DNA of 42,475 bases from an uncultured bacterium (lineage in GTDB: Bacteria > Vulcanimicrobiota > Xenobia > Xenobiales > Xenobiaceae), in assembly GCA_900313515.1 (NCBI GenBank), contig OMRK01000196.1:1-42475 (forward strand). The letters run 5' to 3'. The notes below the pieces were generated by a model. That model searched no databases. It had not been told where the DNA came from and was given only the letters and a program-made list of their open reading frames with translations. Below are positions 6,656 to 32,624 of this stretch, piece by piece. A program made the position numbers and the translations under genes. How positions within the stretch are numbered: position 1 is the stretch's first letter; every line of letters starts with the position of its first letter.

Positions 6656-7477
6656 TCAATCAAGCAGATTTTCCAAACCGGTATTGAGTCCCTCAAGCTC
6701 ACGTATTTTCCGAATAGCTAGAATAACACCAGACATAAAGGACTCACGTGATGAAGAACTATGGTGAAGCGTAAGCGTTTCGCCCTGCCCGCCGAAAATA
6801 ACCTGCTGATCGGCTACATATCCAGGCAAACGCACGGAATGGATGCGAATCCCGCCAAACTTTCCGCCTCTGACTCCCTTGACCGTTTCATCACTTTCAA
6901 CCGGCGAACGGAACTTGCCGTTGGAAGCCCTGGCCATAACCTCTGCCGTATAAAGGGCGGTACCAGAGGGCGAATCCACCTTGCGCTCATGATGGCTCTC
7001 GACAATTTCAGCCCATTTAAAGTACTTGGAGGCCATCTTGGCGAACTTTATCATGAGAACCGCACCCAGAGCAAAGTTGGGCACGAAAAGGACGGGCACG
7101 TTGTACTCCTTTACTAAGGAACTTATTTCTTCAAAATCGAAGTTGGAGATCCCGGTGGTGCCGACCACACAGGCAATGTTCTGCTTGATCGCCCTGGAGA
7201 CAACCTCTCTAATAAAGCTTCCTGTGGAAACATCCACCAAGACCCCACCCCTGGCCTTTTCTAAGGTACTGTCGATATCGATGGAAACTTCTACTCCACA
7301 TGGATCGCCTGTTATAAGTTCACCAATATCTTCACCCAAATGACGCGCATGCCCTATGGCCCCCACTAATTCCATACCCACCTGCGTAAGCACGGTACGC
7401 ACAATCTCACGCCCCAGCCTGCCTGTAGCACCGGAAACAACCACCGGAATAGAAGCCAGCATACTAGAATTTACCAC
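6656..7477 (-). CDS. dapB: 4-hydroxy-tetrahydrodipicolinate reductase
   Basis: VVVSGATGRLGREI N-terminus and the ESHHERKVDSPSGTA DapB signature (E-x-HH-x-x-K-x-D-x-PSGTA). Confidence 0.92.
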   Translation of the reverse strand: MVNSSMLASIPVVVSGATGRLGREIVRTVLTQVGMELVGAIGHARHLGEDIGELITGDPCGVEVSIDIDSTLEKARGGVLVDVSTGSFIREVVSRAIKQNIACVVGTTGISNFDFEEISSLVKEYNVPVLFVPNFALGAVLMIKFAKMASKYFKWAEIVESHHERKVDSPSGTALYTAEVMARASNGKFRSPVESDETVKGVRGGKFGGIRIHSVRLPGYVADQQVIFGGQGETLTLHHSSSSRESFMSGVILAIRKIRELEGLNTGLENLLD

Positions 7478-7514
7478 CTTTCACGAAATACGCACTCTCA
7501 AACTTCTGCATCGG

Positions 7515-8195
7515 CTAATTACCGAAAATCTGCGTCTTCAACCTACTCAAATCTATGTTCTGGGTGCGAGCTGCCCGACGGCGACGCCGTTCCCTGCTAT
7601 CATCGGCTTCCTCCGACAACCTATCGCGACCGCTTTCACTTCTTCTACGGTGCGAGGCTTCCGCTGCTCCATCAGCAGAGTTCTTCTCAGAGCGACGACG
7701 CCCAGAAGTTCCGAATAAACCATCATTTTCCCCCGCATCTTCTTCAAATCCAGGCGGAACCTCCAAACTGGGGAACTCTACATCGGATTCTACCTTGCCA
7801 GTTCCATGTTCGGTGGCCTTACTGGATACAGTATTCACGGCAGCCTTACCACTAACCTCGGCGCGGCTACTCGTTTGCTGGAAGTTCCAAGCCGCTCCCC
7901 GCCCACTTCCACCGACCGGATTGGCGTCTTTAGCCTGGCGACCGCTGTTTGACATGCTCTGCGCAGCAAGCTGTTCCTGCTCAACACGTTTCGCGGCCTC
8001 TTCCCGTTCCCGCTCTAAACGCTTTCTGGCCTCTTCACGGCGCATCTGAAGTTCAAGAGCCACCCTATCTAACTCGGGCAGGGGTTCCCAAGGCAAAACA
8101 TTAGGATCGGGCGCATCAAAAATAGCTCTCTTAATGCGCCTAACTTCGTCCGCCGATATGAAAACCAGAGGCACAGACAGCTTTATCCCTACCAT
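7515..8195 (-). CDS. Hypothetical protein: small ordered N-terminal domain plus a long Arg/Glu/Ser-rich disordered tail
   Basis: Good SD (AGGTGA) about 7 nt upstream of the ATG, and only 37 nt upstream of dapB on the same strand. The N-terminus MVGIKLSVPLVFISADEVRRIKRAIFDAPDPNVLPWEPLPELD looks globular; the rest is low complexity. I recognise no family. Confidence 0.6.
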   Translation of the reverse strand: MVGIKLSVPLVFISADEVRRIKRAIFDAPDPNVLPWEPLPELDRVALELQMRREEARKRLEREREEAAKRVEQEQLAAQSMSNSGRQAKDANPVGGSGRGAAWNFQQTSSRAEVSGKAAVNTVSSKATEHGTGKVESDVEFPSLEVPPGFEEDAGENDGLFGTSGRRRSEKNSADGAAEASHRRRSESGRDRLSEEADDSRERRRRRAARTQNIDLSRLKTQIFGN

Positions 8196-8415
8196 ACTCT
8201 TTTCACCTCTACCGTTCTTAAAAACTTACGCAAACCCGAAGCACATGGGCTTGTCGTTTAAATGCCAACACACCCTCTCGCCTGCCCGTTCGCTACAGGA
8301 AAGCAGATTCCGCTTAAATAGTAAAATTGATTTTCAAAAATAGAAATCGAAGCAAAGAAAAGGGGCACATACGCGACAAAATATAGTTGCTTTTTGCTCC
8401 AGTTTGGGGTAAATT

Positions 8416-9882
8416 ATGGAAATGTTTGGTAAGTGGTTTAGAAACAGACGCAAAGCAGATAACTCTTCAAGTAGCGATAAATCAACCCCCAGCCAGGAAA
8501 ATTCCTGCGTCCAGCAGGAGCCATCCGGCACTCAGCAAGTTCAAGACTCCTCCTCGCCCGATCCGGCAACACCTGGTTCCATCTCGCAAACCAGCTCTCT
8601 CCCAACCCAAGTGGCAGAACAGGGTCAAGACAGTTCCGAATGCACAACTCAACCTTCAAATTTGAGCTTGGAGCGAAATTCATCCGAATTTGTGGCTGCT
8701 GAGCAGAGTTCAAATGATACAAGCCAGGCAATTGCAAGCGATAAAGAGCCTGAAGCTTCAGCCTCCCAGAGTCCTACCCAAGGCGGCCTGCGTTCACTGT
8801 GGGAAGGCGCCCGCAGGCTAGCTCTCACTCCGGTCGATCCCTGGTTTAGCAAGGTCGCTCAAAGTCTGGATAAAACCCGCCAGCAGCTCGTGCATCAGGT
8901 GAGCAATTTATTCACCTCTTCTAAGCGCATAGATGAAGAATTCTGGGAGGAATTGGAAGACATTCTGCTCACTGCCGACGTTGGAGTCGGAGCCTCCACC
9001 CGCATATTAGATGAGTTACAAAAAGTCCAGAAGGAAAAGAGGATAAAAGAGCCAGAGGCTCTGTTTGACGAGCTTAAGGTCATAGTCGGAAAAATTTTGC
9101 GTATAAATGACTTAAAGGCTGATATTGACGGGAATAGCAATACAGACAGGGATGGCGAAGACAAAAATCGCGATACACTCGGCCTCCGCTTATCTCGCGA
9201 GCACCTGAACGTCATCATGATGGTCGGCGTAAACGGCGTCGGTAAGACAACGACAACTGCAAAACTTGCTGCCAAATTCAAGCAAGAAGGTTTCAAAGTC
9301 ATTTTGGCGGCGGCCGACACCTTTAGAGCCGCTGCAGTAGATCAATTGCAGGTCTGGGCGCATAGGGTCGGCGTAGATCTTGTACGTCACCAAGAAGGTT
9401 CCGATCCTGGCGCAGTCGTTTTCGATGCCATTAAGGCCGCCCAAGCCAGGCATTGTAATGTGGTCCTTATCGATACGGCCGGTAGGTTGCACAACAAGGC
9501 CCATCTCATGGAAGAGCTGCGCAAAATCAGAAGAGTTGCCGACAAGGCTTGCCCGGGTGCTCCTCAGGAGACGCTCCTAGTGCTGGATGCTACCACCGGC
9601 CAAAATGCCCTTGAACAGACCAAAATCTTCAATCAAATCACCGAGCTTACCGGCTTAGTTATGTGCAAGCTCGACGGCACGGGCAAGGGTGGTATCGTCA
9701 TAGCCATAGGCCAAGAATTCAATATTCCGGTGCGCTACATAGGCGTGGGCGAGGCCGTTGAAGATCTGCGCGAATTTGATCCTAGTCAATTTTTAGAGGC
9801 TCTATTTGCCGAACCGGCCAGCTACAAGGAACTGGAGAAGCAATTCAGCCACACAGAGCAATCTGATGATGCTGACAGGTAG
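8416..9882 (+). CDS. ftsY: Signal recognition particle receptor FtsY
   Basis: NG domain motifs GVNGVGKTTTTAKLA, AADTFRAAAVDQL, DTAGRLHNK and CKLDGTGKGG. The N-terminal A domain is a long Ser/Gln/Glu-rich region. Confidence 0.93.
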   Translation: MEMFGKWFRNRRKADNSSSSDKSTPSQENSCVQQEPSGTQQVQDSSSPDPATPGSISQTSSLPTQVAEQGQDSSECTTQPSNLSLERNSSEFVAAEQSSNDTSQAIASDKEPEASASQSPTQGGLRSLWEGARRLALTPVDPWFSKVAQSLDKTRQQLVHQVSNLFTSSKRIDEEFWEELEDILLTADVGVGASTRILDELQKVQKEKRIKEPEALFDELKVIVGKILRINDLKADIDGNSNTDRDGEDKNRDTLGLRLSREHLNVIMMVGVNGVGKTTTTAKLAAKFKQEGFKVILAAADTFRAAAVDQLQVWAHRVGVDLVRHQEGSDPGAVVFDAIKAAQARHCNVVLIDTAGRLHNKAHLMEELRKIRRVADKACPGAPQETLLVLDATTGQNALEQTKIFNQITELTGLVMCKLDGTGKGGIVIAIGQEFNIPVRYIGVGEAVEDLREFDPSQFLEALFAEPASYKELEKQFSHTEQSDDADR

Positions 9883-11501: not shown

Positions 11502-12458
11502 GTGCCAGCTTTGCTTCCGGTAGGAAGCAATCTCCGCAACAGGTACAGAATCCACAGTCCTCTGGCTCAAACTAAGTATTGCAATATTTATGTGGCCCAG
11601 GATGGCCACTTAACCAATAAGTTCTGGGTCATCAAAGAGATCAGCATTTATGGATTCTCACCGGGAGATCGCTCGAAATTGAGCCAGTTGTTTCAGGCAG
11701 AGGCCTATCAAGCCTCCGCTCTGGATCATGTGTGCCTGCCCAAGCTCATCGATTTTTTTGCTCAGGGGCAATGCTTGTACCTGGTGCGCGAATTTGTACC
11801 GGGTTTTGATTTAGCCTCGCTTTTGGAGGGCAGAAGAATCCTTCCAGAGACTGAAATTATCAACGTAGGCATTCAACTTTGCGATCTTCTCAGCTACTTG
11901 CAAAGCAAAAATTCCTTAAATAGCCTTGGTAACGACCTCAAGCTCACCAACATTGTGATGCGCAACGATGGCCGCATTGCCATGCTGGATATAGGTTTTA
12001 CAACGCTTAACGGCATTTTAAAGAGCGGTGAGGAGCAATTGCCAGCCTATCCTCCGCCCGAGCAGTTTACCGGCGCCTTCAGTAGCGAAAACAAAAAACT
12101 CGTCTACATGGTAGGAGCAATCTTGTACAACCTGCTCACCAATGTCAGTCCCAGCGGCGCCTCATTCGGACTGCCCGCTCTAGAAAGCCTGCGCCAAGGA
12201 CTCTCAGCGTCGACTAAATCTACGGTCAGCAAGGCCATGCGCAACGATCCGCGTGATCGTTTCAATAATCTGTCCGACCTGCGCAACGGTTTGGTTAAGT
12301 CTTACCAGATAGCGGCTAAGCGAGCTGGAATGAAACCTACCGGTTCCATGGCCGGAGAGTCCTCGCCTCCGCCCAGCTGGCTTTGGATATTGGGCATGAT
12401 TTTTGCCTGTCTGATAGGTGGGGCAATGGTGGTTATTTATCAGATGTTTTTGAGATAA
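11502..12458 (+). CDS. Atypical Hanks-type Ser/Thr protein kinase-like protein, C-terminally TM-anchored
   Basis: GTG start. Kinase-fold landmarks: WVIKE (VAIK Lys), GNDLKLTNIVM (catalytic loop with HRD changed to GND; Asp and Asn kept), LDIGF (DFG changed to DIG), PPPEQF (APE-like). The Gly-rich loop is absent (LAQTKYCNIY). C-terminal TM segment: WLWILGMIFACLIGGAMVVIY. Confidence 0.75.
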   Translation: MPALLPVGSNLRNRYRIHSPLAQTKYCNIYVAQDGHLTNKFWVIKEISIYGFSPGDRSKLSQLFQAEAYQASALDHVCLPKLIDFFAQGQCLYLVREFVPGFDLASLLEGRRILPETEIINVGIQLCDLLSYLQSKNSLNSLGNDLKLTNIVMRNDGRIAMLDIGFTTLNGILKSGEEQLPAYPPPEQFTGAFSSENKKLVYMVGAILYNLLTNVSPSGASFGLPALESLRQGLSASTKSTVSKAMRNDPRDRFNNLSDLRNGLVKSYQIAAKRAGMKPTGSMAGESSPPPSWLWILGMIFACLIGGAMVVIYQMFLR

Positions 12459-12776
12459 CATATAGGGCTGTCGCATAAAAGATACGGCAGCTCTTCTAGA
12501 TCGGTGTAAATCTAGCCGTGGGGCTGGATTTGGGACTGGGCTGGCTTACAAACGCAGGCGGATTGGGATGTCGGAGAGTGTAAGGGTAGAATCGGTCTAC
12601 GTTACCATCTCAAGATGGCTGGATTCACCAACAACCCAGCGTGTTTTCTCCGAAGGAGCGGAGAGCGACCAGTTTGCCTCCTTGACTTCCACAGCTGCTG
12701 GAAATGTGCTGGTGGAATCGATACCAGTAGGTAAGCTTGGCAAGATGATTTGTAAACCGAAATAAGGCAGGAGCAG

Positions 12777-15554
12777 ATGTTTAATCCAGGTGCGATCATA
12801 GGTACTCATTACAAGGTAGTCCGCCTTTTGGGCCAAGGCGGTATGAGCAACATATACCTTTGTGAAGATACCCATCTTTTCAATAAGGTGTGGGCTGTCA
12901 AGGAATTTACGGCAACCTACGCCGATCCACAGGAGCAAGCCAATGCTTTGGGTAGTTTCGAACGTGAGGCCCGTTTACTGTCTGCTCTTTCGCACCCCAA
13001 CCTGCCGACTATAAACGAGTATTTTCAGTTTCAGGGCCATTATTACCTGGCCATGGAATATTTGAAGGGCAAAGATTTAGGTAAGATTATCGAAGAGAAT
13101 AACGGACCGCTGCCGGAAATGGACGTGGTAGACTGGGGCACCCAGATGGCCACGGTGCTTTATTACCTGCATTGCCAAAAACCCGTGCCCATTATTTTTC
13201 GCGACGTCAAACCTAGCAACATAATTATATTAGACGGCATGGTTAAGCTGATCGACTTCGGCATTGCCCGCCTATTCACCCCCGGTAAGCGTGGCGACAC
13301 CATGCGCATAGGTTCCCCAGGGTACGCTCCTCCCGAGCAGTACAATGGTCAAACCGATCAGCGTTCCGATATCTACGCCCTAGGAGTCACTCTGCACCAG
13401 GCTATAACAGGTAAGGATCCTACGTTATCACCTAATCCCTTCGTCATTCCGCCGGTGCTCACTATTAACCCTCAAGCCTCTCCCCAGTTGGCGGCGATTA
13501 TCGAAAAATCTACTCAGTTGGTTCCCGAAGATCGCTACCAGAGCATGCTGGAGGTCAAACGCGATCTGCGCAATCTCCTGATGTCTAAACGTGGCATGCG
13601 CGGCATGACCACTCCCAATATGGGCGCCGTGCCCCCAAATCTTATGCAGGCGACCGCACCTTTCTCCGTAGCCACTAACGGTCAGACCGCTCCCCAAGGA
13701 GCTCCGGTGGTAGCGGCCAACCAGCTTCCTCCCTCCAATGCGGCAGCTCAACCTGGGCAAGCTCAGCCGTCCGCACCTAGCAACGTCCAGACTCCGGCTG
13801 CACCGGCAGCAGATGGGCTTCGCGGTCGCACCAGCGTGGTCTCCCCTGCCAGCATGCCGCCCACCTCCATCCCTGGTCAGTCAGAAAAAGCTGTTGGTCC
13901 CGGATCTGCAGGTAACCAGAATGTTCCAACAACCGATACCTCCGTTGCGAATAACCGTCCGCAAGCACCACCAGTTATAGTGACGGTAGATGGAGGAATC
14001 CCAGAAGATAGCTTCGGCAGTAAGGTGAAACGTTTTCTTTTCCTGACTGCTAGTTGGGGAATAACCGCTGCCTGTGCGGCAGTGATAGTTGGTTTGTGGA
14101 CTCCCTGGATGCCGACTCCAGCGCCTCTTACCTCCAGTGCCACCCAACTTACGGCTGCCCTGCTACCTAAGCAAGACGGTCTACCACCGCTGTCGGTCGA
14201 TAATTACCGCTCTATTTATCAGTATGCTCCCGATCGTTTGGCTGCAGTTAAGGCCCTAGATGACTACTTAGCAAAGCATGGCGATGATCTTCCCGCCTCT
14301 TTACAGCGCCTCAATTTGGACGTGCTTAAAAGTCAGTATGCCTTAGAAGAAGAGACTCGAGGCGGTCAGACCTGTCTGCGCATGGTTGACAAGTCGTCTT
14401 CCAAGTCTGCTTCACAGCATTCAAATACAGCATCCCGAGCTAGCAGCTTCAAAAAACTCACCGGGGCAGCTAACACGATAGCTGTAATAGTTCCCGAGTC
14501 ACCCGAAGCTGGCGCTCCCGTTCTGCGCGGTGTGCTCGCAGCTCAGAAGGCTTTACAGAATTATCACGGTTTCAGAGGACAGGGAGTGATGATCAATCCC
14601 ATTGTGGAAGATGATCTAAGACAGATAGATTTTCGATTGTCCAGTCAGATTTTTGCCGACGCTCCTATGCCCCAGCCCAACACCTTCAATTCCCAAGCCA
14701 TTCTAAGCTTAACCGACGTAAGTTCAATCTGGCAGGGAAGATCCAAAATTCAGGCTCCTAAGTTTTACACAAAGCTGGATAACTCCAGCAAAAGCGTTAC
14801 CCCTGCAGCAGTAAAAAGCTCCAGTGTCAAAAAAAGTACGGTTCAAATAACCCTGCCAACGCTGGCCGACACTATGGGCGTTTCTGTGCAGCGCAACCAC
14901 CCCACACAGCCTTTCTACACTTTGGACATTCAAGAGATAGCTCCCAAGCTCGCAGTTCTTCCTCAGGCAACCAACAGCAAGGAGCAAACGCCTTCCGAGC
15001 CGGAAAAGGTCAACAGCGGAGACAGCGCCGGTTCAAAATATTTCACAATACCAGATGTCCTCATTCCCAACGCTAAAAAAATTACGATAAAGGGACTGGC
15101 CGAGCAAAAGAAAGGAACTGTTTTTATCACTCTGGGGCAATATTTAGCAGCTAAAAGCAGCCTCCTTGAAGCTAAATTGCCGAAATCGCTACAAATCGTG
15201 ATAATTGTACCATGGATAGAGGCGCTAAAAGGTGAAACCCAGCCAGACGCCTGGGTTAAGAACGGACAGCTACAAGTTTGGTCTCTGCTATCTTACGCCC
15301 ATCCTCACAGTCAAGCAGTTGAACTGCTCAATACCGGGATTATCGACACTCGTGCAGTCAATATTGCCTCGGCCTACGCACAGTTGCAAGCAGCCGATGC
15401 CTTTACACTAGAAGCAGTTGGCTTGCGTAACTCTTCCGGAGTTTTCAAAGGTGTACTGGCCAAGTATGATTCAGGGATCAGCAAATTTGAAACTCTGCCG
15501 TGCCAAAGCTTTGATTGGAAAGCTGATGGCCTGCACCGCCACAACTCACAATGA
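12777..15554 (+). CDS. Membrane Ser/Thr protein kinase (Hanks type) with a Pro/Ala/Gln-rich linker, one TM helix and a ~480-aa ectodomain
   Basis: LGQGGMSNIY (Gly loop), WAVKEF, IIFRDVKPSNIIL, KLIDFGIAR and GSPGYAPPEQ. TM segment: FLFLTASWGITAACAAVIVGLW (about 14037-14102). The ectodomain contains IAVIVPESPEAGAPVLRGVLAAQKALQ...GQGVMINPIVEDD, reminiscent of type 1 periplasmic binding proteins. Confidence 0.9.
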   Translation: MFNPGAIIGTHYKVVRLLGQGGMSNIYLCEDTHLFNKVWAVKEFTATYADPQEQANALGSFEREARLLSALSHPNLPTINEYFQFQGHYYLAMEYLKGKDLGKIIEENNGPLPEMDVVDWGTQMATVLYYLHCQKPVPIIFRDVKPSNIIILDGMVKLIDFGIARLFTPGKRGDTMRIGSPGYAPPEQYNGQTDQRSDIYALGVTLHQAITGKDPTLSPNPFVIPPVLTINPQASPQLAAIIEKSTQLVPEDRYQSMLEVKRDLRNLLMSKRGMRGMTTPNMGAVPPNLMQATAPFSVATNGQTAPQGAPVVAANQLPPSNAAAQPGQAQPSAPSNVQTPAAPAADGLRGRTSVVSPASMPPTSIPGQSEKAVGPGSAGNQNVPTTDTSVANNRPQAPPVIVTVDGGIPEDSFGSKVKRFLFLTASWGITAACAAVIVGLWTPWMPTPAPLTSSATQLTAALLPKQDGLPPLSVDNYRSIYQYAPDRLAAVKALDDYLAKHGDDLPASLQRLNLDVLKSQYALEEETRGGQTCLRMVDKSSSKSASQHSNTASRASSFKKLTGAANTIAVIVPESPEAGAPVLRGVLAAQKALQNYHGFRGQGVMINPIVEDDLRQIDFRLSSQIFADAPMPQPNTFNSQAILSLTDVSSIWQGRSKIQAPKFYTKLDNSSKSVTPAAVKSSSVKKSTVQITLPTLADTMGVSVQRNHPTQPFYTLDIQEIAPKLAVLPQATNSKEQTPSEPEKVNSGDSAGSKYFTIPDVLIPNAKKITIKGLAEQKKGTVFITLGQYLAAKSSLLEAKLPKSLQIVIIVPWIEALKGETQPDAWVKNGQLQVWSLLSYAHPHSQAVELLNTGIIDTRAVNIASAYAQLQAADAFTLEAVGLRNSSGVFKGVLAKYDSGISKFETLPCQSFDWKADGLHRHNSQ

Positions 15555-15698
15555 GATTCCCTCTATTTCAAGATTACCAGGCTTCCGACCGAATAGGATG
15601 GAAGACCTGCTAAATCCCAATAAACGTGGTTACGTTTCAGGTCTGCTCCCCCGGTGGGACAGCTAGATGTTAACTGAAAACGGAGACAGCTCAAGGCT

Positions 15699-16421
15699 AT
15701 GATTTTTAAACGGATTATCTACTGCGTAGCGGCATTTCTGCTGAGTTGTTCCTTGGGGCTTTTCATATCGGGAGACTTGGCTCATGGTTTGGGGCTTCCC
15801 ACCGAAAAGCTGTGGATTAGATTTCTCCTTAGTTTTTTCGTAGGCTTGGTGGGAACACTCATCTTCTATGGTGCCTCTCAGAAGCTTATCCATCTGGCCG
15901 AAGAGACCGATCCAGACTTCACTCAGCAGCAACAACAGTGGGCTTGGCTTAAGCCCGCAGGTGTGGTAGCTCGCTCACCTTACCCGATAAATAAAGAACA
16001 GATTATCATAGGACGTGACATAACTTCCGATATACTACTGTGCAACGACTCCATATCTCGCCGCCATGCTGAAGTGTTGCGCTCTGCCGAAGGATGGAGC
16101 GTCCACGATCTAGGTAGCAGTAACGGAACCTTTGTAAACGGCCAGCGTATAGAAGCGGAAACCCTGCTGGCCGATGGCGATGTAATAACCCTTGGTGATG
16201 TCAACCTGACCTTTGAAGGCCCACGTCGTCCTCTTCCTCAGACTTCTCCCGAGCGGGTAAGCTCCATGCGTCCTATCGATCCCCAGAGCCTCGGCTTGGA
16301 CGATTTGGACACGCAGGTGCAAACATCTTCCACGCTTCCGGTAAACGATCCTAACACCGAAGTATGGCGTCCACGCCCTGACGGCAGTCGCATGCCCAAT
16401 GAATTCCCCGGCAACTACTAA
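15699..16421 (+). CDS. FHA domain-containing membrane protein
   Basis: Two N-terminal TM segments, followed by IIIGRDITSDILLCNDSISRRHAEVLRSAEGWSVHDLGSSNGTFVNGQRI. This is the FHA G-R...S-R-x-H...S-x-N-G-T-x-V-N-G pattern. Confidence 0.88.
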   Translation: MIFKRIIYCVAAFLLSCSLGLFISGDLAHGLGLPTEKLWIRFLLSFFVGLVGTLIFYGASQKLIHLAEETDPDFTQQQQQWAWLKPAGVVARSPYPINKEQIIIGRDITSDILLCNDSISRRHAEVLRSAEGWSVHDLGSSNGTFVNGQRIEAETLLADGDVITLGDVNLTFEGPRRPLPQTSPERVSSMRPIDPQSLGLDDLDTQVQTSSTLPVNDPNTEVWRPRPDGSRMPNEFPGNY

Positions 16422-16433
16422 GCCGACAACGCT

Positions 16434-17564
16434 ATGAGCGATTCCTTCAGCCTTGAGAAACATGTACTGCCGAAAACTTTGATATTTGCCGGTGGTGTGG
16501 GCGGTGCGCGCTTCCACAAAGGTTTTTACGATCTTTTTTACGGTGCTAATCGTGTGAAGCAATCCTTGGGGCCTGATTCGGTAAGCCATGAACGCAACAA
16601 CTTATCAGGTATCACTTGCAAGAAAAGTTCCCCTTATACTGGTTTCCATGACTGTACTCAAAGCGGCTCTAAGCCATGCTTTCCCAGTTTCTCTCCTGAT
16701 TTTCCGCTCCATGCTGTAATCAATACAGGCGATGATTTCGCTTGGATGGGCCTTAAGGTCTGCCCTGACCTGGACACCAACCTTTATACTCTGGCCGAAT
16801 TGAATAACGAAGAGAGAGGCTGGGGATTAAAGAATGACACCTGGTCCGGCCTCTCCATGCTTAAACGCTGGCCAGAGAACCCATGCTGGTTCAATTTAGG
16901 TGATGCCGACCTAGCTTTCAGTCTGGAACGAACCTTACTGTTGCGTGAAGGGCTAAACCTAGCGCAGATCTGCTGTCGACTGGCCGAAGGCCTGGGACTT
17001 AAACCAGAAATATGGCCCATGTGTCTGGAAGAGGTCACCACATATGTAGACACTTATCAAGGTAGCCTGCCTTTTCAAGAATACTTTGTTAAACAAAAGG
17101 CCAAGCCGCTCCCCACCGGATTCACCTACAAAGGTTTAGACAAGGCTAAGCCTTTACCACATCTTTTGGAACTTATTCAGCAGGCCCAGCTCATCCTCAT
17201 CGCTCCGTCCAATCCCTTTGTAAGCATACTGCCTATTTTAGGTTTGGCCGGAATCAAGCCCGCTCTACAGAAAAGCCCGTCTCTAAAAATAGCTATAAGT
17301 CCTCTGGAAGGCGGTCGAGCTTTTAAAGGGCCACTGGTAGAAATGCTGAAAGCGGCTCAACTTCCCGTCTCCGCCTCAGGAGTGGCCCATCTTTACCGTG
17401 ATTGGCTGGACATATTCGTAATGTCATCGGTGGATGCCCCGTTGGGAAGCTCAGTGGAAAAGATGGGTATAAAACCAATCTTTACCGATGTAACACTATC
17501 CAGCCCACAAGACAGAAGCAGATTGACGACCTTCGTTCTCGATATTGCCCAGAAATTTTCCTGA
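16434..17564 (+). CDS. cofD: CofD/FbiA family 2-phospho-L-lactate (or enolpyruvyl-phosphate) transferase homologue
   Basis: IFAGGVGGARF, VINTGDDFAWMGLKVCPDLDTNLYTL, RGWGLKNDTW, WFNLGDADLA, LIAPSNPFVSILPIL and SPLEGGRAFKGP follow the order and wording I recall for M. tuberculosis FbiA/CofD. The PSNP motif argues against the YvcK branch. Starts 12 nt after the FHA gene. A ~30-aa extra segment follows the first Gly-rich motif. Confidence 0.82.
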   Translation: MSDSFSLEKHVLPKTLIFAGGVGGARFHKGFYDLFYGANRVKQSLGPDSVSHERNNLSGITCKKSSPYTGFHDCTQSGSKPCFPSFSPDFPLHAVINTGDDFAWMGLKVCPDLDTNLYTLAELNNEERGWGLKNDTWSGLSMLKRWPENPCWFNLGDADLAFSLERTLLLREGLNLAQICCRLAEGLGLKPEIWPMCLEEVTTYVDTYQGSLPFQEYFVKQKAKPLPTGFTYKGLDKAKPLPHLLELIQQAQLILIAPSNPFVSILPILGLAGIKPALQKSPSLKIAISPLEGGRAFKGPLVEMLKAAQLPVSASGVAHLYRDWLDIFVMSSVDAPLGSSVEKMGIKPIFTDVTLSSPQDRSRLTTFVLDIAQKFS

Positions 17565-17628
17565 AAATAGGTAAAATTCAAACATTGCCTAAAAATTCAC
17601 CGAACCCCCATCGCCGGAGACCAAAAGA

Positions 17629-25745: not shown

Positions 25746-28406
25746 ATGACTAAATTTAAGCCCTATCTAATAGAATACACGACGGCTGCTCTGATTTCGT
25801 GCTTGTTGGCGGCCTTGATGTTTGCTCCTATCTTCTGGACCGACACCTTTATTTATGAAGGCGATCTGACCGGTTCGGATCTTCTGGATATGAACCTTCC
25901 TTTTCGGTACCTGGCGGCCCAAGCGGCTAAGAATTTCAGCCTGCCCATGTGGATCTCGGAGATCGGTTGCGGTTTCCCCCTGCTCGCTGAAGGTCAGGCT
26001 GGCGTTTTTTACCCATCAACTCTGCCTCTATTCCTACTTTTTTCCATACCCTGGGCGGACAATCTCAGCATCATTTCCTCTTTGGCTATAGCTATCTTCG
26101 GTGGTTATGTGCTGGGACGCGTGCACGGACTATCGCGCATTTCCAGCACCTTTGTGGGCATCACCATAGGCTTTGGACCCACACTGGTATTCCGTATTAA
26201 GCACCTTAATATGGTGCAAGTAGGGGTGTGGTTCCCGATTTCAGTCGCAGCTATTAAAATAATATTTGATGCTATCAAGCAGATCTCCATAAACCAAGAG
26301 ATCGAATATGAGCGGACGGAGATCCAAACTCAAGAGGAATCAAAAAATTTGCAATCGGAGGTTTCCGATTCCCTAGATGCCCCTGCAAAGAAGGAAGTAG
26401 CCCCGGCCGATGACTCGACAAAAAAACAGAAGAAAACCGACGGATCTTCATCGGCGCAAAAAGGTAAAAACAGCTCCAGTAACATAGCTTACAGTCAGAT
26501 CGGTTCTGAGTTACTCCAACCAATTAGCCGTGTCAAATTGGGAATTCTTCTCCTTGCCATCTGCTGGACTATGATGATCTTTGCCGGTCATCCTCACGTG
26601 GCCTATGTATGCGGTCTAGCCGGCGTGACGTATGTTATAGTGATGGCGTTCTGTGAAATTATGCGTCCCTATTTCGACCGTGTTCTGTGGCAGACTTTGG
26701 CGGCTATGGTCGTAAGTGTCGTCATTAGCGTATGTCTGGGAGCAGTACAGTTACTTCCTACCTACGAACTCACCACGCAATCCAGCCGCGGCCATTCTTA
26801 CACGTGGAAGCAAATTTCTGAGTATCCAGTTACTACATGCCACCTAAAACTGTTTTTAAATCCATTTGAATTTGGCAATCCAGGTGATTATAAAAAGTTT
26901 CCCAAACAAAAAACTTACGGTAAAATAGACATCTTCTGGGAAGACATGCCTTATATCGGTTTGACGGCGTTGTTTTTGTTACCTTTGACCTTCATCAGAA
27001 GACACAATGAACAGACAGAGGACAGTAGCCATCAGGAAACTTCCAAAAACGACGCAACAGCCAAGACTAATGGGCCGGCTGTGCCAAAAAGTTCGAAAAG
27101 TAATATGGCCAGCTTTTTAACGGCCACCGCCACTTCCAAGGCTATACCGTGGGCAATTGTGCTTACCACTATATTGTTACTTATTTTGGCCTGTGGCGGC
27201 AAGGGGAAACTCTACTGGATCCCATGGCGTTTCTGTCCGGGATTTGACATGTTCCGTTATCCAGCCAGATTTCTTATCCCATTCGGAACCATGGCTGCTC
27301 TATGGGCCGGCTTTGGGGCAGACGCTCTGTTGAGCCGCATTCCCTCCCCCGTTAAGCTCAAATATGGACGCCTGTCCATTGGCTTATTGCTCTGCATGCT
27401 TGCCTTTGCCAATTTTGCCTGGACTACCAACAACTACGTTTCCTATCTGCCCAATCAGGTTTTTAGAGAAGTTCCTGAGACCGTTGACATATTGAAAGGT
27501 CACTCGAGAATAGCCGCCCCTTATATCAAGCGATATTGGAAAGGATACGTAAAAAACAGGGGTTGGCGCAATGCTGGTGATCGTGTAATTGATCTATTGA
27601 AATCAATGACTCCCGATTCTTCATCCTTCTGGGGAGTCAAACAGAGCGGCAACCGTACCTGCTTCGAAGGAGGTTCATGTCTGCAGCGTTACCAAGACAT
27701 ACAGCGTTACACAAGAAGTTCCATAGATTACAAACAAACCGAGCCCATCAGATTTACCCCCAAGACGCTAACTCTTTTTAAACTGCAGAATGTGAGCCAC
27801 TTTTTGGCCTTTGAGAAGGCCATTAACGGTGAAGGTGAGGAACTGCCACTGATTCGCGTAATTAGGTGGCCCAGCATTCCCCGTAACCTGCGTATCTATA
27901 AACTTAATGACCCCAGGCCTAGAGCTTATCTAGTTCCCCGCTTTGTGGAAGATGAACCACAGAGGATGTCCCGTTTTTACAGAAAGCACAATGCTATAAT
28001 AGACAGCGGTGACACCTGCGTATTTTACGTTGAGGACAATGCAGTCAGGCCGGGAAAAACTTCTCCTAAAACTTCTTTGACCAAGAAAGAGTATTGTCAC
28101 ATTGTAACGGATGAGCCCATGCACTTGGAGTTGGACATAAATACCGAAGACAATCGGGCGGTTCTTTTCACCGAAAATAAATACTCGTGCTGGCAAGCGA
28201 CCCTGGATGGCAATCCTGTTGATATCTATCGCACCAATTATGCCTTTATGGGCTGCGTAGTACCACCTGGACGGCATACATTGCGTTTTGATTTTGTTTG
28301 CTCAACATTAAGATGGGGTGCACTTCTTGGAGTGCTAGGCCTAATAGCCTTTGTTGGCCTGTCGGTCAACGCTTCAAGGGAGATACGAGCGCAAGGTCAG
28401 GCATGA
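25746..28406 (+). CDS. YfhO-like polytopic membrane protein, paralogue 4 (most diverged, two Lys/Ser/Glu-rich inserts)
   Basis: 886 aa with the same motif order (GDLTGSDLLDMNLPFRYLA, GHPHVAY, PGFDMFRYPARFLIPFG, YSCWQATLDGNPVDIYRTNYAFMGCVVPPGRHTLRFDF). It has no poly-G tract at the W-G-G position (here F-G-G, TTC GGT GGT). Confidence 0.85.
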   Translation: MTKFKPYLIEYTTAALISCLLAALMFAPIFWTDTFIYEGDLTGSDLLDMNLPFRYLAAQAAKNFSLPMWISEIGCGFPLLAEGQAGVFYPSTLPLFLLFSIPWADNLSIISSLAIAIFGGYVLGRVHGLSRISSTFVGITIGFGPTLVFRIKHLNMVQVGVWFPISVAAIKIIFDAIKQISINQEIEYERTEIQTQEESKNLQSEVSDSLDAPAKKEVAPADDSTKKQKKTDGSSSAQKGKNSSSNIAYSQIGSELLQPISRVKLGILLLAICWTMMIFAGHPHVAYVCGLAGVTYVIVMAFCEIMRPYFDRVLWQTLAAMVVSVVISVCLGAVQLLPTYELTTQSSRGHSYTWKQISEYPVTTCHLKLFLNPFEFGNPGDYKKFPKQKTYGKIDIFWEDMPYIGLTALFLLPLTFIRRHNEQTEDSSHQETSKNDATAKTNGPAVPKSSKSNMASFLTATATSKAIPWAIVLTTILLLILACGGKGKLYWIPWRFCPGFDMFRYPARFLIPFGTMAALWAGFGADALLSRIPSPVKLKYGRLSIGLLLCMLAFANFAWTTNNYVSYLPNQVFREVPETVDILKGHSRIAAPYIKRYWKGYVKNRGWRNAGDRVIDLLKSMTPDSSSFWGVKQSGNRTCFEGGSCLQRYQDIQRYTRSSIDYKQTEPIRFTPKTLTLFKLQNVSHFLAFEKAINGEGEELPLIRVIRWPSIPRNLRIYKLNDPRPRAYLVPRFVEDEPQRMSRFYRKHNAIIDSGDTCVFYVEDNAVRPGKTSPKTSLTKKEYCHIVTDEPMHLELDINTEDNRAVLFTENKYSCWQATLDGNPVDIYRTNYAFMGCVVPPGRHTLRFDFVCSTLRWGALLGVLGLIAFVGLSVNASREIRAQGQA

Positions 28407-30259
28407 GTTATCTTATGGAAATAGGTCTAGCCATTGCTATCCTGGTTGCCCTGCTGATAGCTTGGTTTTTTGCCAAGATTGTTATACGTAGATATATTAA
28501 CTACACCTTTTCTGCATTAGTTGCTGAAGGTAATCTTAGCAAAGCCCTGCAGTATTTTGAAAAAATCACCACAACTTCACCATTAACTTTAGCCTACAAC
28601 AGCACCTTGGTTGAAGCAGCTATAAATTCCAATTTTTTAGAATCGAACCAGAGTCCCGACAATTTACGTCGTTTTTTTGAGAATTTGGCCGATAGCTACT
28701 TACTTATCCAACCCTATTCCAGCTTTGCCAACATTTTTGCAGCAGGCATCAAAAGGTATAATAACCCGAAGCTGTCAGCTGAATGCATAATGAAGGCCAT
28801 GCAGTATGAGCCCCATTTCTTCTCCCTAAGCTCTCTGATAACACACCACATGGCCTGCCTTATTGCACGTGATTTTGATGTCTGCCTATCTATATACCTA
28901 GCCAGCTCCATTTTACAATCTTTCCCCAAACGTAAGTACATACGTGAGGAGCTTCTTTCCCTTTTCCAAGCACTTACCGGATCGCTAAGCTCGGCTGGCG
29001 CTATTGATCGGGCCGAACAGTGTTGCCAAGAGGTGTTGTCCTCAGAGTTTTTCCAACCTCTGTCCCGCTCAACTGAAGTCTACTTCACTTACTACTCGGC
29101 CTTCTTCCAGCACAAGCTGGGACATACTCCGACATATACAGACAGACTCACAAGTTTAGAAACTATCGATTACTACACCCCTTCCCTGTTCATATCGGCT
29201 GCCTTGTTCTGCCTGAGCAGACATGACAACCTCAAGGCTATGCAGTGCATGCATAAATTAAAATCAGTTAAGGAAATTTCTCTGCCCTTATGGATAACAG
29301 ATGGAGTTACCGCCTATATAAGTGTGATTTCCTATATCAATAATCTTTTGAACTCCAAAGAAGATCTGCCTGATGACGACATGTTGATGCTCTGCTTGAA
29401 AAATCTCAAAGATGCTGCCGATTCCTACCACGACAGTTTATTTATGCAGATATTAGCGGCCGATGGGTTCTTCTGTGCCGGGCACAAGCATAAGGCTCTT
29501 CTTTATCTGGAGCGTGCCAATAAACTTCCTAATCAGATTGTAGGAATCGGCAGCGAACCTCCAGATGACTGGTCGCCAGATACGTATGGATTTCTGCTGG
29601 GTCTGTCCGAGTCCCTGGCCATCCCCTTCTTCTCAGCTCAACACTACCATGAGAATCTTAAATTCAAACTGTACAAGGATCTGGGCCGCGGTGACGAAGC
29701 CTTAGCCCTATGCCTGCGGCAGCTGCGCGAAGATGATCGATTACCAGCTAACACCAAGGCTAATTGGCTGTTAAATGCTGCCGAAGCTGCTCACTTAAAG
29801 AACCAGGAAAAACAGGCCAATGAGTACTTACACCAGGCAGAACAGCTCTTGGACAAGCAACAGGCGGTCAATCATATAAAAGGTGCTCCCATACCTGCCT
29901 CAGAACTAATGCAGGAAATAACCAAGCCACGCTGCTTCGGCTCAATAGAATACCATTTCAATCGCGCCCGTCAGCATTTTCTGGACAAAAAATATGACGA
30001 AGCAACCCAAAGCGCTCTGAATGTATTATCATGCTGTCCTTATGATTTAAATGCACTGCGTCTGCTGGGCGAACTGGCCAAGATCCGCCACAGTGCCAAG
30101 CTGGCCCAAGTTGTATGCACCCACTTGGAAAAGTGCTATGTAGCCGTGGAAGATCTGTTGCTTATGAGTGAGTTGGAACTTCTGCAAGAAATAGATTACA
30201 TCGATGATTTCCCAGAGTCAGCGCAACAACCACAGGCAGAATCGGACATGCAGAATTGA
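28403..30259 (+). CDS. TM-anchored TPR-like helical repeat protein (618 aa)
   Basis: The ATG at 28403 overlaps the paralogue 4 stop (ATGA), and the upstream extension to 28298 lies inside that gene. N-terminal TM segment: IGLAIAILVALLIAWFFAKIVI. The rest is all-helical with TPR-like A/L/Y spacing (KALQYFEKI, KALLYLERANKL, ARQHFLDKKYDEATQSALNVL). Confidence 0.75.
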   Translation: MSYLMEIGLAIAILVALLIAWFFAKIVIRRYINYTFSALVAEGNLSKALQYFEKITTTSPLTLAYNSTLVEAAINSNFLESNQSPDNLRRFFENLADSYLLIQPYSSFANIFAAGIKRYNNPKLSAECIMKAMQYEPHFFSLSSLITHHMACLIARDFDVCLSIYLASSILQSFPKRKYIREELLSLFQALTGSLSSAGAIDRAEQCCQEVLSSEFFQPLSRSTEVYFTYYSAFFQHKLGHTPTYTDRLTSLETIDYYTPSLFISAALFCLSRHDNLKAMQCMHKLKSVKEISLPLWITDGVTAYISVISYINNLLNSKEDLPDDDMLMLCLKNLKDAADSYHDSLFMQILAADGFFCAGHKHKALLYLERANKLPNQIVGIGSEPPDDWSPDTYGFLLGLSESLAIPFFSAQHYHENLKFKLYKDLGRGDEALALCLRQLREDDRLPANTKANWLLNAAEAAHLKNQEKQANEYLHQAEQLLDKQQAVNHIKGAPIPASELMQEITKPRCFGSIEYHFNRARQHFLDKKYDEATQSALNVLSCCPYDLNALRLLGELAKIRHSAKLAQVVCTHLEKCYVAVEDLLLMSELELLQEIDYIDDFPESAQQPQAESDMQN

Positions 30260-30310: not shown

Positions 30311-30386
30311 TGAGGCATAGCCAAACGGTAAGGCAACGGACTTTGGATCCGTCATTTTCTAGGTTCGAATCCTAGTGCCTCAGCCA
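30311..30386 (+). tRNA. tRNA-Gln (anticodon UUG), CCA encoded
   Basis: Manual cloverleaf: acceptor TGAGGCA/TGCCTCA (U1:A72 as in bacterial tRNA-Gln); D arm GCCA-AACGGTA-AGGC; anticodon stem ACGGA/TCCGT with loop CTTTGGA (anticodon TTG); T arm CTAGG-TTCGAAT-CCTAG; discriminator G plus CCA. Near-collinear with E. coli tRNA-Gln as I recall it. Confidence 0.93.
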
Positions 30387-30626: not shown

Positions 30627-32624
30627 CTAAACACTCCAGCAGAACCGTTCCATCAGATCCAGGAATACAGACTCCCGCTCTTTCTGCTCCAATCCTACTC
30701 CATTGAGCAGAGAACGTACCCAATGGCTGAGTTTACGCTCCGCTTCCTGCTTATCCTCAGGCAGAGGGAAGAGCTTCTCAATATGCCAGAGCTCCAATTC
30801 CAAGCAAGCCCTGACCAGACGGGCAGTAAAGGTCACCGAATGATCATCTTTCCACTGACTGAGGGGGGGCAACTCGAACTGCAAGGGCAAAAGTTCAAAC
30901 CAATACTTGGAATCGGCATTGGGCTGCAGAGCGTACATTTCCGCTAGAGCTTCCGACCATGGACCCAATTTCTGAGAGCCACTCTGGGGATAAAGCCTAC
31001 TGAACCAACGTCTGAAAAGACTATTGAGAATGGGAATGTAATCCTCTGACGAGGTGGGCAGCTCCGCTTCCTCATAGCCGAACTGCATGGCAATGCGCTC
31101 AGCCATCTTGTACTTGCAATACTCCTCATATTGGGAAAAAGCCGTCAGAGCCTCCTGCAACCAGGCCTCAAATCTCTCCAGTTCCTCGCCATGCGGCAAT
31201 CCCGAGAAACCAGCCGCCAAAATCAAGCCATCCCCAATAAACTTGCGAGCCGAAGCTTCTCTTCTGCTCTCTAAAAGCTCCTTAAGCACGTAAGCCGGTT
31301 CATCTTCACTAACCTTGAGAGTACGTGCCAGAGGCGAAAGCCGGTCATACCACTCCACCAAGGCATCCTTGGCTATTTCCCACAAATCACGCAGATATCG
31401 GCCATCGTAAGGAAAACCGCACAATTCCACTATTTTACGCAAACAATCAGCACTCTCGTAAGGAGCCTGCGGCAAATAAACAATCTGGCTGTGGGCCGCC
31501 TTCCCCCAAACCCGGCGCAGAGCCTGGCTGTTAAGTTCCACCTCTTGACCGTCGCAAACTATACTCACGGCCGGATAATAACGGCGAATAGCCGCGGCTA
31601 TCAGTATATTTAGATAGGAAACCTCCATCCCGTACGGGTAAGCAGTAAACTTGCGCAAAATGTCACTCAGATTGCAACGATGCTCCTCCTGACCATTCCC
31701 CAAGAGCATAACCAAAAGTTCGTTCCAAACACTGGACAGGGCACCCTTGTGGGAATCGCTCACTCCGCAAACTTGCTCAACTACGTAATTTCCACAGTCC
31801 TTGGTTATTTCAACCACTCCATTGCCCACCAGAAATTCCCGTATAATTTCGGTCTTTCCACTCTTATCAAAAGACAGAAATTGCAACGGCTCCTGAACGT
31901 TTAACAGAACATCCACCGCCTCATAACGATCCCTCACGCTACCGTGGGGGGCTGACCGACGGTCTCGACGATAAATCTTCTCTAAAACAGCGGTAAAGAA
32001 ATTATTGCGGCTTCCGGCCAACTCAGGCTCATCATCTAAATCTATGCCCAAGTCGGATCCCAAGTAAGACCAATCGAATTTACCTGGCCTAAGCTCAGGA
32101 CGAAGTTTTTCCACCAGTTGGCGGCGGAGCATATCTCGGCGATTATTTAAAATATTCTGAGCCGTGCCAGGCTGGTTGTAGGGCTCCTGTGAAGACAAGG
32201 TATGTATAGCCTGAAACTCCTTGAGTTGAGCTATACCCGGCATAGGCTCCTTGGGGATCCCAAACAGAACTCGCCTTCCAGCTTTGGAGTTCTGCAAAAG
32301 CGCACTGACATCTTCTGTCTCACGACGGGTAAATCCAACGCCCATTACCGCCAACAACGCATATTTATCGGGGCACTCGGTGGGAACGGGATCGTTAGGG
32401 CCGATAAATACGCACTTCACGCACCTAGGCCTTAAGTGAGTCTTCTTGTAAAGGCGCGGAGTTATGGCTCGTGCAGGATAGCACAATCCCAAGACCTGAG
32501 CATAATTAAGCTTTCCCTGCTCCGTTACAACTCGGGAAATATCCTGATTCAAATTGGAACGGTTAAAGCCTACCGAAGACACAATGCTATCGCTCATATA
32601 TCCGCAAAACCTCCAAATTGACAT
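30627..32624 (-). CDS. Large hypothetical protein (665 aa), no family recognised
   Basis: Long clean ORF with ordinary amino-acid composition. I see no P-loop and no clear nuclease, methylase or TM motifs. The start is uncertain: the ATG at 32624 lacks an SD, while the ATG at 32597 (MSDSIVSS) has GGAGG 12 nt upstream. Contains a C7 run on the coding strand (30863-30869). Confidence 0.7.
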   Translation of the reverse strand: MSIWRFCGYMSDSIVSSVGFNRSNLNQDISRVVTEQGKLNYAQVLGLCYPARAITPRLYKKTHLRPRCVKCVFIGPNDPVPTECPDKYALLAVMGVGFTRRETEDVSALLQNSKAGRRVLFGIPKEPMPGIAQLKEFQAIHTLSSQEPYNQPGTAQNILNNRRDMLRRQLVEKLRPELRPGKFDWSYLGSDLGIDLDDEPELAGSRNNFFTAVLEKIYRRDRRSAPHGSVRDRYEAVDVLLNVQEPLQFLSFDKSGKTEIIREFLVGNGVVEITKDCGNYVVEQVCGVSDSHKGALSSVWNELLVMLLGNGQEEHRCNLSDILRKFTAYPYGMEVSYLNILIAAAIRRYYPAVSIVCDGQEVELNSQALRRVWGKAAHSQIVYLPQAPYESADCLRKIVELCGFPYDGRYLRDLWEIAKDALVEWYDRLSPLARTLKVSEDEPAYVLKELLESRREASARKFIGDGLILAAGFSGLPHGEELERFEAWLQEALTAFSQYEEYCKYKMAERIAMQFGYEEAELPTSSEDYIPILNSLFRRWFSRLYPQSGSQKLGPWSEALAEMYALQPNADSKYWFELLPLQFELPPLSQWKDDHSVTFTARLVRACLELELWHIEKLFPLPEDKQEAERKLSHWVRSLLNGVGLEQKERESVFLDLMERFCWSV

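Follow-up and report, generated by a model that had tools for sequence, protein, structure and literature searches.

The contig OMRK01000196.1 (GenBank assembly GCA_900313515.1), a stretch of 42,475 nucleotides (nt) from an uncultured bacterium of the family Xenobiaceae (class Xenobia; phylum Vulcanimicrobiota, or Eremiobacterota), was analysed over its whole length, which we call the window. On its plus strand it carries a block composed of a kinase-like gene (K1), a receptor-type Hanks kinase gene (K2), a gene for a membrane-anchored FHA protein, a gene of the CofD family, four YfhO-like genes and a gene for a membrane protein resembling tetratricopeptide repeat (TPR) proteins. The open reading frames (ORFs) lie in this order, on this strand and at exactly the coordinates given by a first-pass annotation made from the letters alone (Table 1). 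The nearest named homologues are from Candidatus Bruticola (Vulcanimicrobiota/Eremiobacterota, class Xenobia), and others are from UBP9 and ‘Eremiobacteraeota’ metagenome-assembled genomes. The trio K1-K2-FHA is best explained as a lineage-specific membrane signalling cassette that is vertically inherited in Eremiobacterota/Xenobia-type bacteria. The cassette is constant, and the outputs encoded with it vary by lineage, being YfhO-TPR, CofD-YfhO-TPR or cofD-cofC.

Table 1 Features of the block and of its 3' boundary in the window (aa, amino acids; GT-C, a glycosyltransferase fold).
Feature	Length	Position (nt)	Strand	Basis or remark
K1, predicted pseudokinase	318 aa	11502-12458	+	Pkinase (PF00069) 51.8 bits
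K2, receptor-type Hanks Ser/Thr kinase	925 aa	12777-15554	+	Pkinase 136 bits
Membrane-anchored FHA protein	240 aa	15699-16421	+	FHA (PF00498) 75.4 bits, cutoff 20.7
Divergent CofD-family phosphotransferase	376 aa	16434-17564	+	PF01933 106.5 bits, cutoff 30
YfhO-family (predicted GT-C) paralogue 1	823 aa	17629-20100	+	PF09586 32.3 bits; 54% identity to paralogue 2
YfhO-family (predicted GT-C) paralogue 2	803 aa	20157-22568	+	Best match to the single-copy gene of relatives
YfhO-family (predicted GT-C) paralogue 3	943 aa	22817-25648	+	PF09586 44 bits; 50% identity to paralogue 2
YfhO-family (predicted GT-C) paralogue 4	886 aa	25746-28406	+	PF09586 51.7 bits; 45% identity to paralogue 2
Membrane TPR-like protein		28298-30259	+	Sub-threshold TPR matches only; one transmembrane helix, aa 45-63
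tRNA-Gln(ttg)		30311-30386	+	3' boundary of the co-directional block; Rfam tRNA 63.3 bits; ARAGORN

The block is conserved well beyond the window. We scanned the genomes of GTDB species with a clade-specific CofD alignment, which returned 29 loci (numbered with the prefix L), and compared the window proteins with all loci using tblastn. Conservation of the adjacency, the check that the first-pass annotation had suggested, is borne out by all nine GTDB species representatives of the clade (L010-L017 and L023), in which K1-K2-FHA-CofD-YfhO-TPR follow each other on one strand. The same order recurs in the metagenome contigs L001-L003 and L044-L046, and its FHA-CofD-YfhO part in L008 and L009. The genes of the relatives are closely packed, with 2-13 nt between K2 and FHA, 3-9 nt between FHA and CofD and an overlap of ~11 nt between CofD and YfhO; the K2-FHA overlaps of L011 and L016 are upstream-start artefacts of longest-ORF calls. 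From FHA to YfhO this spacing is tighter than in the window, where we confirmed the previously noted gaps of 12 nt between FHA and CofD and 64 nt between CofD and paralogue 1. Canonical CofD loci of other phyla have no kinase, FHA or YfhO gene beside CofD, the sole case of a kinase-like match being one ~5.4 kb downstream of the canonical CofD of L038. One locus, L012 (CAAGRW010000019.1), is labelled ‘Candidatus Riflebacteria bacterium’ yet has a Xenobia-type block whose identities to the window (K1 70%, CofD 54%) equal those of the other gut loci, and its taxonomic label is probably wrong.

The intact block occurs in three different flank contexts. In the window, thrE lies upstream, and tRNA-Gln, a gene without assignment and murB follow. 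In the gut group, a minus-strand ABC transporter lies upstream and Cu_amine_oxidN1-glmU-prs downstream. In L023, the block lies between a minus-strand rpoD-dnaG pair upstream and a molybdo-hydroxylase gene downstream.

More divergent loci narrow the conserved unit. L039 (GCA_017458675.1), which has gut-group flanks, encodes K1 (58% identity to the window protein), K2, FHA (52%), YfhO (39%), a small ORF and TPR (27%); L047, a 2.1-kb fragment limited to K1 (60%) and the kinase domain of K2 (67%), is close to it, and together they form a second lineage. L048, a locus of 68% GC found in metagenomes through the K1 alignment, encodes K1 (48%), the K2 kinase domain (60%) and FHA (43%), and its FHA gene overlaps a gene for a canonical CofD (319 aa) by 4 nt. 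The kinase-FHA-CofD-YfhO adjacency of the first-pass annotation stands as an order kept throughout the nine clade representatives, but across L039 and L048 only K1-K2-FHA is constant. The trio is therefore the invariant unit, and it is not tied to one output.

No protein of the block is better conserved than K1, whose orthologues share 48-73% identity with it (tblastn); in L023, K1 is 73% identical to the window protein and CofD just 42%. K1 consists of a kinase-like domain and a single C-terminal transmembrane (TM) helix predicted at aa 294-312, a segment that is nearly invariant among orthologues. Its motifs were read from an alignment with orthologues, K2 and PknB, the last of these serving as a motif ruler and nothing else. 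The glycine-rich loop has zero Gly in every orthologue. At the position of the HRD Asp, the window and L023 have D, five loci have N (L003, L010, L011, L039 and L047) and two Bruticola loci have H; a complete HRD motif is found in L048 only. The VAIK Lys, the alphaC Glu, the catalytic-loop Lys and Asn (DxKxxN) and the DFG Asp (as D-I/V-G) are all kept. K1 has the kinase fold of PF00069 and lacks the motif set of an active kinase. On these residues it is predicted to be a tail-anchored pseudokinase, or at best a kinase of impaired activity, retained for a scaffolding role, and it does not obviously fall into any of the bacterial pseudokinase families described previously (PMC12599244).

K2 has the motifs of an active Hanks kinase (PF00069), and these are intact in every orthologue: GQGGMS, VKE, the E of FEREA, FRDVKPSN, DFG and PPE. 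The Thr of its activation loop, GDTMRIGS, is conserved as well. The kinase domain (~aa 12-280) is followed by a low-complexity linker rich in Pro, Ala and Gln and, by TM prediction, by a TM helix (aa 420-438, nt 14034-14090) and an ectodomain of ~485 residues (aa 441-925, nt 14097-15551). Against the PknB/Stk1 PASTA kinase model NF033483, K2 scores 182.7 bits, short of the 450 cutoff, and matches over the kinase domain only. In L039, K2 (6866-9273) is in two ORFs, a 369-aa kinase and a 411-aa TM-plus-ectodomain protein, owing to either a real split or an assembly frameshift.

The K2 ectodomain has no Pfam match, and six orthologous ectodomains searched at E<=10 gave noise only; its profile has no match in the PDB. 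An exhaustive search of 1.84 billion proteins returned four representatives, all of 878-925 aa and hence orthologues. Judged from these searches, the ectodomain appears to be an orphan without relatives outside the clade. It evolves fast: orthologues share 24-34% identity in it, whereas the kinase domain is still 60-67% identical in the loci that are most distant. A by-eye impression of a periplasmic-binding-protein-like motif in it was dropped after the Pfam, PDB and exhaustive searches gave no support. The ligand sensing that had been suggested for the ectodomain likewise found no Pfam, PDB or out-of-clade homologue to back it, and is kept below as a conjecture.

Two predicted TM helices anchor the FHA protein near its N terminus (aa 6-24 and 38-56); the FHA domain spans aa 102-166, and the C-terminal tail is conserved. 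The residues that bind phosphothreonine (pThr), of the pattern GR...SxxH...NG (GR, SRRH and NGT), are invariant across orthologues, as expected of a PF00498 domain. WAWLKPAG is also invariant, and the residues after it, up to SP[YF]P, are nearly so. In the tail, the motif [ST]T[QE][VIL]W is kept in all lineages checked, including L048; the sole exception is the metagenome contig L008, in which S replaces W. The best NCBIfam match is to FhaB/FipA Rv0019c (NF049868), at 64.3 bits, well under the cutoff of 125. A tail Thr with a large hydrophobic residue at +3 recalls the target sites of mycobacterial Ser/Thr protein kinases, and a phosphorylated tail beside an FHA domain would resemble the GarA/OdhI intramolecular switch; we treat both likenesses as leads only.

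By its sequence matches, the CofD protein is clearly of the coenzyme F420 CofD/FbiA type. The closest PDB matches are Methanosarcina mazei CofD (3c3d, 1.5e-45) and FbiA (6uvx, 2.1e-43), and a YvcK/GlmR identity was rejected at 26.5 bits for TIGR01826 against a cutoff of 196. It shares the fold, the motifs and the metal-binding Asp pair of canonical CofD/FbiA, the 2-phospho-L-lactate/phosphoenolpyruvate transferase of F420 synthesis (PMC7253369); the FbiA metal ligands Asp45 and Asp57 (PMC7253369) correspond to D100 and D112, and both are invariant. It nevertheless differs from canonical CofD in scoring below the cutoff of the equivalog model TIGR01819 (227.8 versus 257.45 bits), in an N-terminal insert, in substitutions and in its neighbours. 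The CofDs of the block, which we call module CofDs, have 30-55 additional residues after the GGVGG loop, and retain ~62 of ~85 conserved columns (>=85% conserved across 106 canonical CofDs). H163S and V116N are fixed in all of them, at positions that are near-universal elsewhere (the canonical His is 97% conserved), and D198L occurs in most of them and is absent in L023 and P0012. Module CofDs are monophyletic in a neighbour-joining tree, a crude method, which places the CofD of L048 in the canonical group. The L048 protein has His163 and Asp198 and is 52-54% identical to Thermoflexus and actinobacterial CofDs, against 41-44% to module CofDs.

The neighbours of cofD differ in the same way. At least 10 of ~25 canonical loci have cofC as the very next gene after cofD, and many of the ~25 end too soon for a neighbour to be visible. 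No cofC was found within +-10 kb in any module locus, and YfhO fills the slot downstream of cofD there. L048, in which cofD holds the same position after K1-K2-FHA, has the canonical pair, with cofC (PF01983) and a luciferase-like oxidoreductase gene after cofD. In the literature, papers on Xenobia make no mention of F420, nor does an F420 review mention Eremiobacterota. A divergently oriented dnaG-rpoD pair adjoins both the Thermoflexus canonical cofD (L004, 6169-10942) and the block of L023 (1939-10993), and may reflect an old dnaG-cofD synteny into which K1-K2-FHA was inserted, or coincidence.

The four YfhO-like genes of the window are tandem paralogues of 45-54% identity, and relatives have one. 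Paralogue 2 has the top tblastn score against the single YfhO of every relative (44-50% identity). All four proteins match PF09586 above its cutoff of 28.5 bits (32-52 bits), with the match confined to the C-terminal 50-80 residues. The YfhO profile has no match among PDB sequences. An AlphaFold2 model of paralogue 2, built on an alignment of 97 homologues, reached a predicted local distance difference test score of 93.5 and a predicted template modelling score of 0.94, and its top 14 Foldseek matches in the PDB are all GT-C enzymes (AftD, STT3/OST, PglB, DPY19, ArnT, Pmt4 and AftA). On this model, the YfhO-like proteins are predicted to be glycosyltransferases of the GT-C fold. D46, E83, Q85, R408 and R412 are invariant in the 97 homologues and D41 is nearly so; by our reading of the model's topology, D41 and D46 belong to the first extracytoplasmic loop, which holds the catalytic acid in GT-C enzymes. 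The cytoplasmic TM4-TM5 loop of paralogue 2 (~aa 187-200) is hypervariable and rich in Ser and Thr, and is ~60 aa longer in paralogue 4.

The TPR gene closes the conserved block, and an orthologue (27-41% identity) follows YfhO in every relative that has YfhO. Its longest ORF has a TTG start 109 nt inside paralogue 4 (28298-28406); the true start is probably downstream, because alignments with orthologues begin at ~aa 36-55. Most relatives have a small ORF of ~180-216 aa without Pfam match between YfhO and TPR (for example L001 13497-14147 and L039 12437-12985; also L010-L017 and L046), for which the window has no counterpart.

The arrangement of the window is compatible with shared transcription. 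The co-directional plus-strand run is longer than had been noted, extending from ftsY (8416) to the tRNA-Gln gene. A consensus terminator scan confirmed the earlier remark that no terminator hairpin lies in the FHA-CofD or CofD-paralogue 1 gap, and it placed plus-strand terminator-like sites in none of the gaps between genes of the block; sites in the terminator and promoter scans are no more frequent than in shuffled sequence, so that both scans carry little weight either way. FHA, CofD and the first YfhO gene may be co-transcribed. Rfam models gave no riboswitch or leader RNA in the block, the tRNA being the sole match. The K1-K2 gap (12459-12776) holds a 65-aa ORF (12568-12765) and has a folding z-score of -1.74. 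GC content over 11-17 kb is 0.49-0.53, versus 0.44-0.52 in the rest of the window, without a marked shift in composition.

Hanks kinases and FHA proteins encoded beside envelope genes are a known theme. The analogy with PknB, FhaA and MviN, drawn in the first-pass annotation, proved closer than could then be seen, as the kinase-like gene encodes a predicted pseudokinase. PknB phosphorylates the pseudokinase tail of MviN, to which FhaA is then recruited (PMC12599244). The Mycobacterium tuberculosis PknB-MviN(MurJ)-FhaA system and the block have in common that an active receptor Hanks kinase and a pseudokinase at the membrane occur with a pThr-reading FHA protein and a membrane enzyme of envelope biogenesis (PMC12599244). 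K1 resembles MviN further in having no usable Gly-rich loop. Unlike the MviN pseudokinase, however, K1 is a separate tail-anchored protein that is not fused to the MurJ flippase, and both the VAIK Lys and the DFG Asp are retained in it, and the likeness of the two would be one of functional logic only. The systems also differ in that the FHA protein of the window is itself anchored in the membrane, K2 has no PASTA domains, the neighbouring enzyme is of the YfhO-type GT-C rather than MurJ, and the three signalling genes are adjacent. Mycobacterial FhaB/FipA (Rv0019c), encoded in the fhaA-fhaB-pstP-rodA-pbpA-pknA-pknB operon, offers a second comparison as a small membrane-anchored FHA protein near Hanks kinases and envelope enzymes, whereas the window protein has a pair of TM helices and ends in a conserved Thr motif, with no PP2C phosphatase gene nearby.

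In Firmicutes, the same kinds of protein are connected without being neighbours. The Listeria CofD-superfamily protein YvcK/GlmR is a substrate of the kinase PrkA (PMC10128056), and disruption of yfhO or gtcA suppresses a delta-glmR mutant by sparing UDP-N-acetylglucosamine (UDP-GlcNAc) (PMC10128056). The Listeria/Bacillus PrkA(PrkC)-YvcK/GlmR-YfhO/GtcA axis thus links a Hanks kinase, a CofD-superfamily protein and a YfhO glycosyltransferase in function. The genes are unlinked in Firmicutes, whereas those of the window lie together; the window protein is of the F420 CofD type and not YvcK, and the window showed no gene resembling GtcA or CsbB. The YfhO, GtlB and PgfM proteins of Firmicutes, which act in teichoic-acid or protein glycosylation, share PF09586 and the GT-C fold with the window proteins; the latter belong to an Eremiobacterota host and are encoded by a gene that is quadruplicated in the window and single in relatives. 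A literature search found no paper that joins YfhO, FHA and kinases.

We propose, at a probability of roughly 45%, that the K1-K2-FHA cassette and the closely packed CofD-YfhO-TPR genes provide phospho-control of envelope glycosylation. Beyond gene adjacency and tight spacing, every step of the following scheme is one that we infer. K2 would be activated through its ectodomain, autophosphorylate the activation-loop Thr and then phosphorylate Thr residues on partners, for which the K1 scaffold and the T[QE]VW tail of the FHA protein are candidates. The FHA domain would read these phosphothreonines within the membrane plane and thereby switch how the envelope enzymes encoded alongside assemble or work. 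The chief one would be the GT-C glycosyltransferase, which would decorate an extracytoplasmic polymer or protein. K2 would then be the writer, K1 the scaffold and probably a substrate, and the FHA protein the reader; in the lineage of the window, the outputs would be a co-transcribed CofD-like enzyme and a GT-C/TPR glycosylation unit. The logic would mirror that of PknB, the MviN pseudokinase and FhaA, and echo the Listeria PrkA-YvcK/GlmR axis. The first-pass annotation had proposed that Ser/Thr phospho-signalling controls an extracytoplasmic glycosylation machine. On the evidence of the predicted fold, such a machine is a fair description of the YfhO-like set, but the regulatory coupling of the trio to glycosylation goes no further than plausible.

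The main rival to this phospho-control reading, which we consider rather unlikely, is that the block represents inherited synteny only, in which case the trio would serve general envelope or growth signalling with targets elsewhere, CofD would be an ordinary F420 enzyme and YfhO-TPR an unrelated decoration unit. Several observations favour it and weigh against phospho-control of glycosylation. The ABC cluster upstream matches the block in its degree of conservation from Bruticola to L039, and is kept even in the 68% GC locus L048. In L048, the trio precedes a typical F420 context, and no YfhO or TPR gene occurs in the ~6 kb downstream of cofD, showing that adjacency to YfhO is not universal; in L039, CofD is absent, and YfhO there comes directly after K1-K2-FHA, which speaks for phospho-control. 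Because L039 has no CofD and L048 has the canonical pair, CofD looks like an inherited F420-type gene, and its retention of most canonical columns and of both metal-ligand Asp residues points the same way. The evidence of conservation is also narrower than the number of loci implies: most of the loci belong to one closely related gut group, whose synteny extends across the full 21 kb (+-10 kb) and whose Prs proteins are 96-97% identical. The gut loci amount to about one observation, and the independent observations or lineages number just ~3-4. Distant YfhO homologues (33-36% identity) lie after DUF58/TgpA genes with no kinase or FHA gene nearby, and neither the window nor the flanks of relatives contain a PP2C phosphatase gene. 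The window itself is less compact at its 5' end, with 318 nt between K1 and K2 (10-80 nt in relatives) and 144 nt between K2 and FHA, and promoter-like matches occur in it at chance frequency. A 10-bp hairpin (12464-12494) with a weak U tract behind it stands at the start of the K1-K2 gap, and K1 may for this reason be off the shared transcript. Against synteny alone stand the integrity of the block across the three flank contexts, the gaps of 3-12 nt between FHA and CofD and the CofD/YfhO overlap of relatives, as well as the two changes specific to module CofD: the loss of a cofC neighbour that is frequent in canonical loci, and the fixation of H163S and V116N at near-universal positions. We think that CofD after FHA is probably an old arrangement that started as ordinary cofD-cofC, and that in Xenobia-type genomes the cofC neighbour has probably gone and CofD has diverged and become coupled to YfhO.

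A stronger version of that history, in which CofD was neofunctionalised after the loss of cofC as a phosphotransferase serving the adjacent GT-C enzyme, seems to us distinctly improbable. Such a protein could make or modify a donor or acceptor with a phosphodiester link or, like YvcK/GlmR, control a pool of nucleotide sugars, and it could itself be a target of the kinase and FHA proteins. YfhO sits in the usual slot of cofC and overlaps CofD in relatives, the Ser163, Asn116 and insert of the module proteins accompany retained catalytic Asp residues, the score falls under the NCBIfam equivalog cutoff, and Listeria supplies a precedent in the genetic link PrkA-YvcK/GlmR-UDP-GlcNAc-YfhO/GtcA (PMC10128056). 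The K1-K2-FHA-YfhO-TPR block of L039 indicates, however, that CofD is dispensable for the GT-C unit; most residues of the substrate region are unchanged, and the protein is far from the YvcK family. A shade less probable again is the specific proposal that CofD, with its His-to-Ser change, its insert and translational coupling to the GT-C gene, has been rewired into a phosphotransferase that would make or modify the lipid-linked or polymer substrate used by this glycosyltransferase, with a kinase/pseudokinase/FHA switch controlling the entire unit. An anti-phage defence system of the PD-T4-6 or MADS kinase type is very improbable, and we rejected membership in either: K1 and K2 match the PADLOC PD-T4-6 and mad6 kinase models and NCBIfam MAD6, but these matches span the generic kinase domain and none is full-length, FHA, CofD, YfhO and TPR have no PADLOC match, and the block is vertically inherited amid housekeeping genes (ftsY, murB, glmU, prs and dnaG) without a marked GC shift across 11-17 kb.

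Elsewhere in the window, three minus-strand ORFs have no Pfam match: 30627-32624 (665 aa), 7515-8195 (226 aa) and 1118-2080 (320 aa). The first of these lies directly after the block on the opposite strand and has no NCBIfam match either. A further minus-strand gene (2153-2872) encodes a type IV pilin-like protein with a prokaryotic N-terminal methylation motif. A radical SAM/SPASM gene (39818-40915) lies ~10 kb downstream of the block, and L042 has one (1558-2640) ~3 kb upstream of a YfhO paralogue; the link between the two may be coincidence.

No component of the block is a new fold. Three points are new. In Eremiobacterota, the trio combines a stand-alone tail-anchored predicted pseudokinase with an FHA adaptor that is TM-anchored; it is linked to a YfhO-type, predicted GT-C enzyme; and the CofD, which has no cofC beside it, bears substitutions that are fixed in the clade. 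A single representative of the Eremiobacterota (Vulcanimicrobiota) has been cultivated, and to our knowledge nothing is known of how their envelope is built or regulated. As separate genes, the trio offers a compact and testable version of the PknB/MviN/FhaA logic outside Actinobacteria, and it adds one membrane-anchored predicted pseudokinase. If the trio does gate the GT-C enzyme, it would be a rare bacterial case of post-translational control of extracytoplasmic glycosylation. The divergent CofD without a cofC neighbour may indicate that gut Xenobia make cryptic use of F420, or represent the CofD fold in a new reaction; were the rewiring of CofD true, it would be a new enzymatic use of this fold in envelope glycosylation under Ser/Thr phospho-control.

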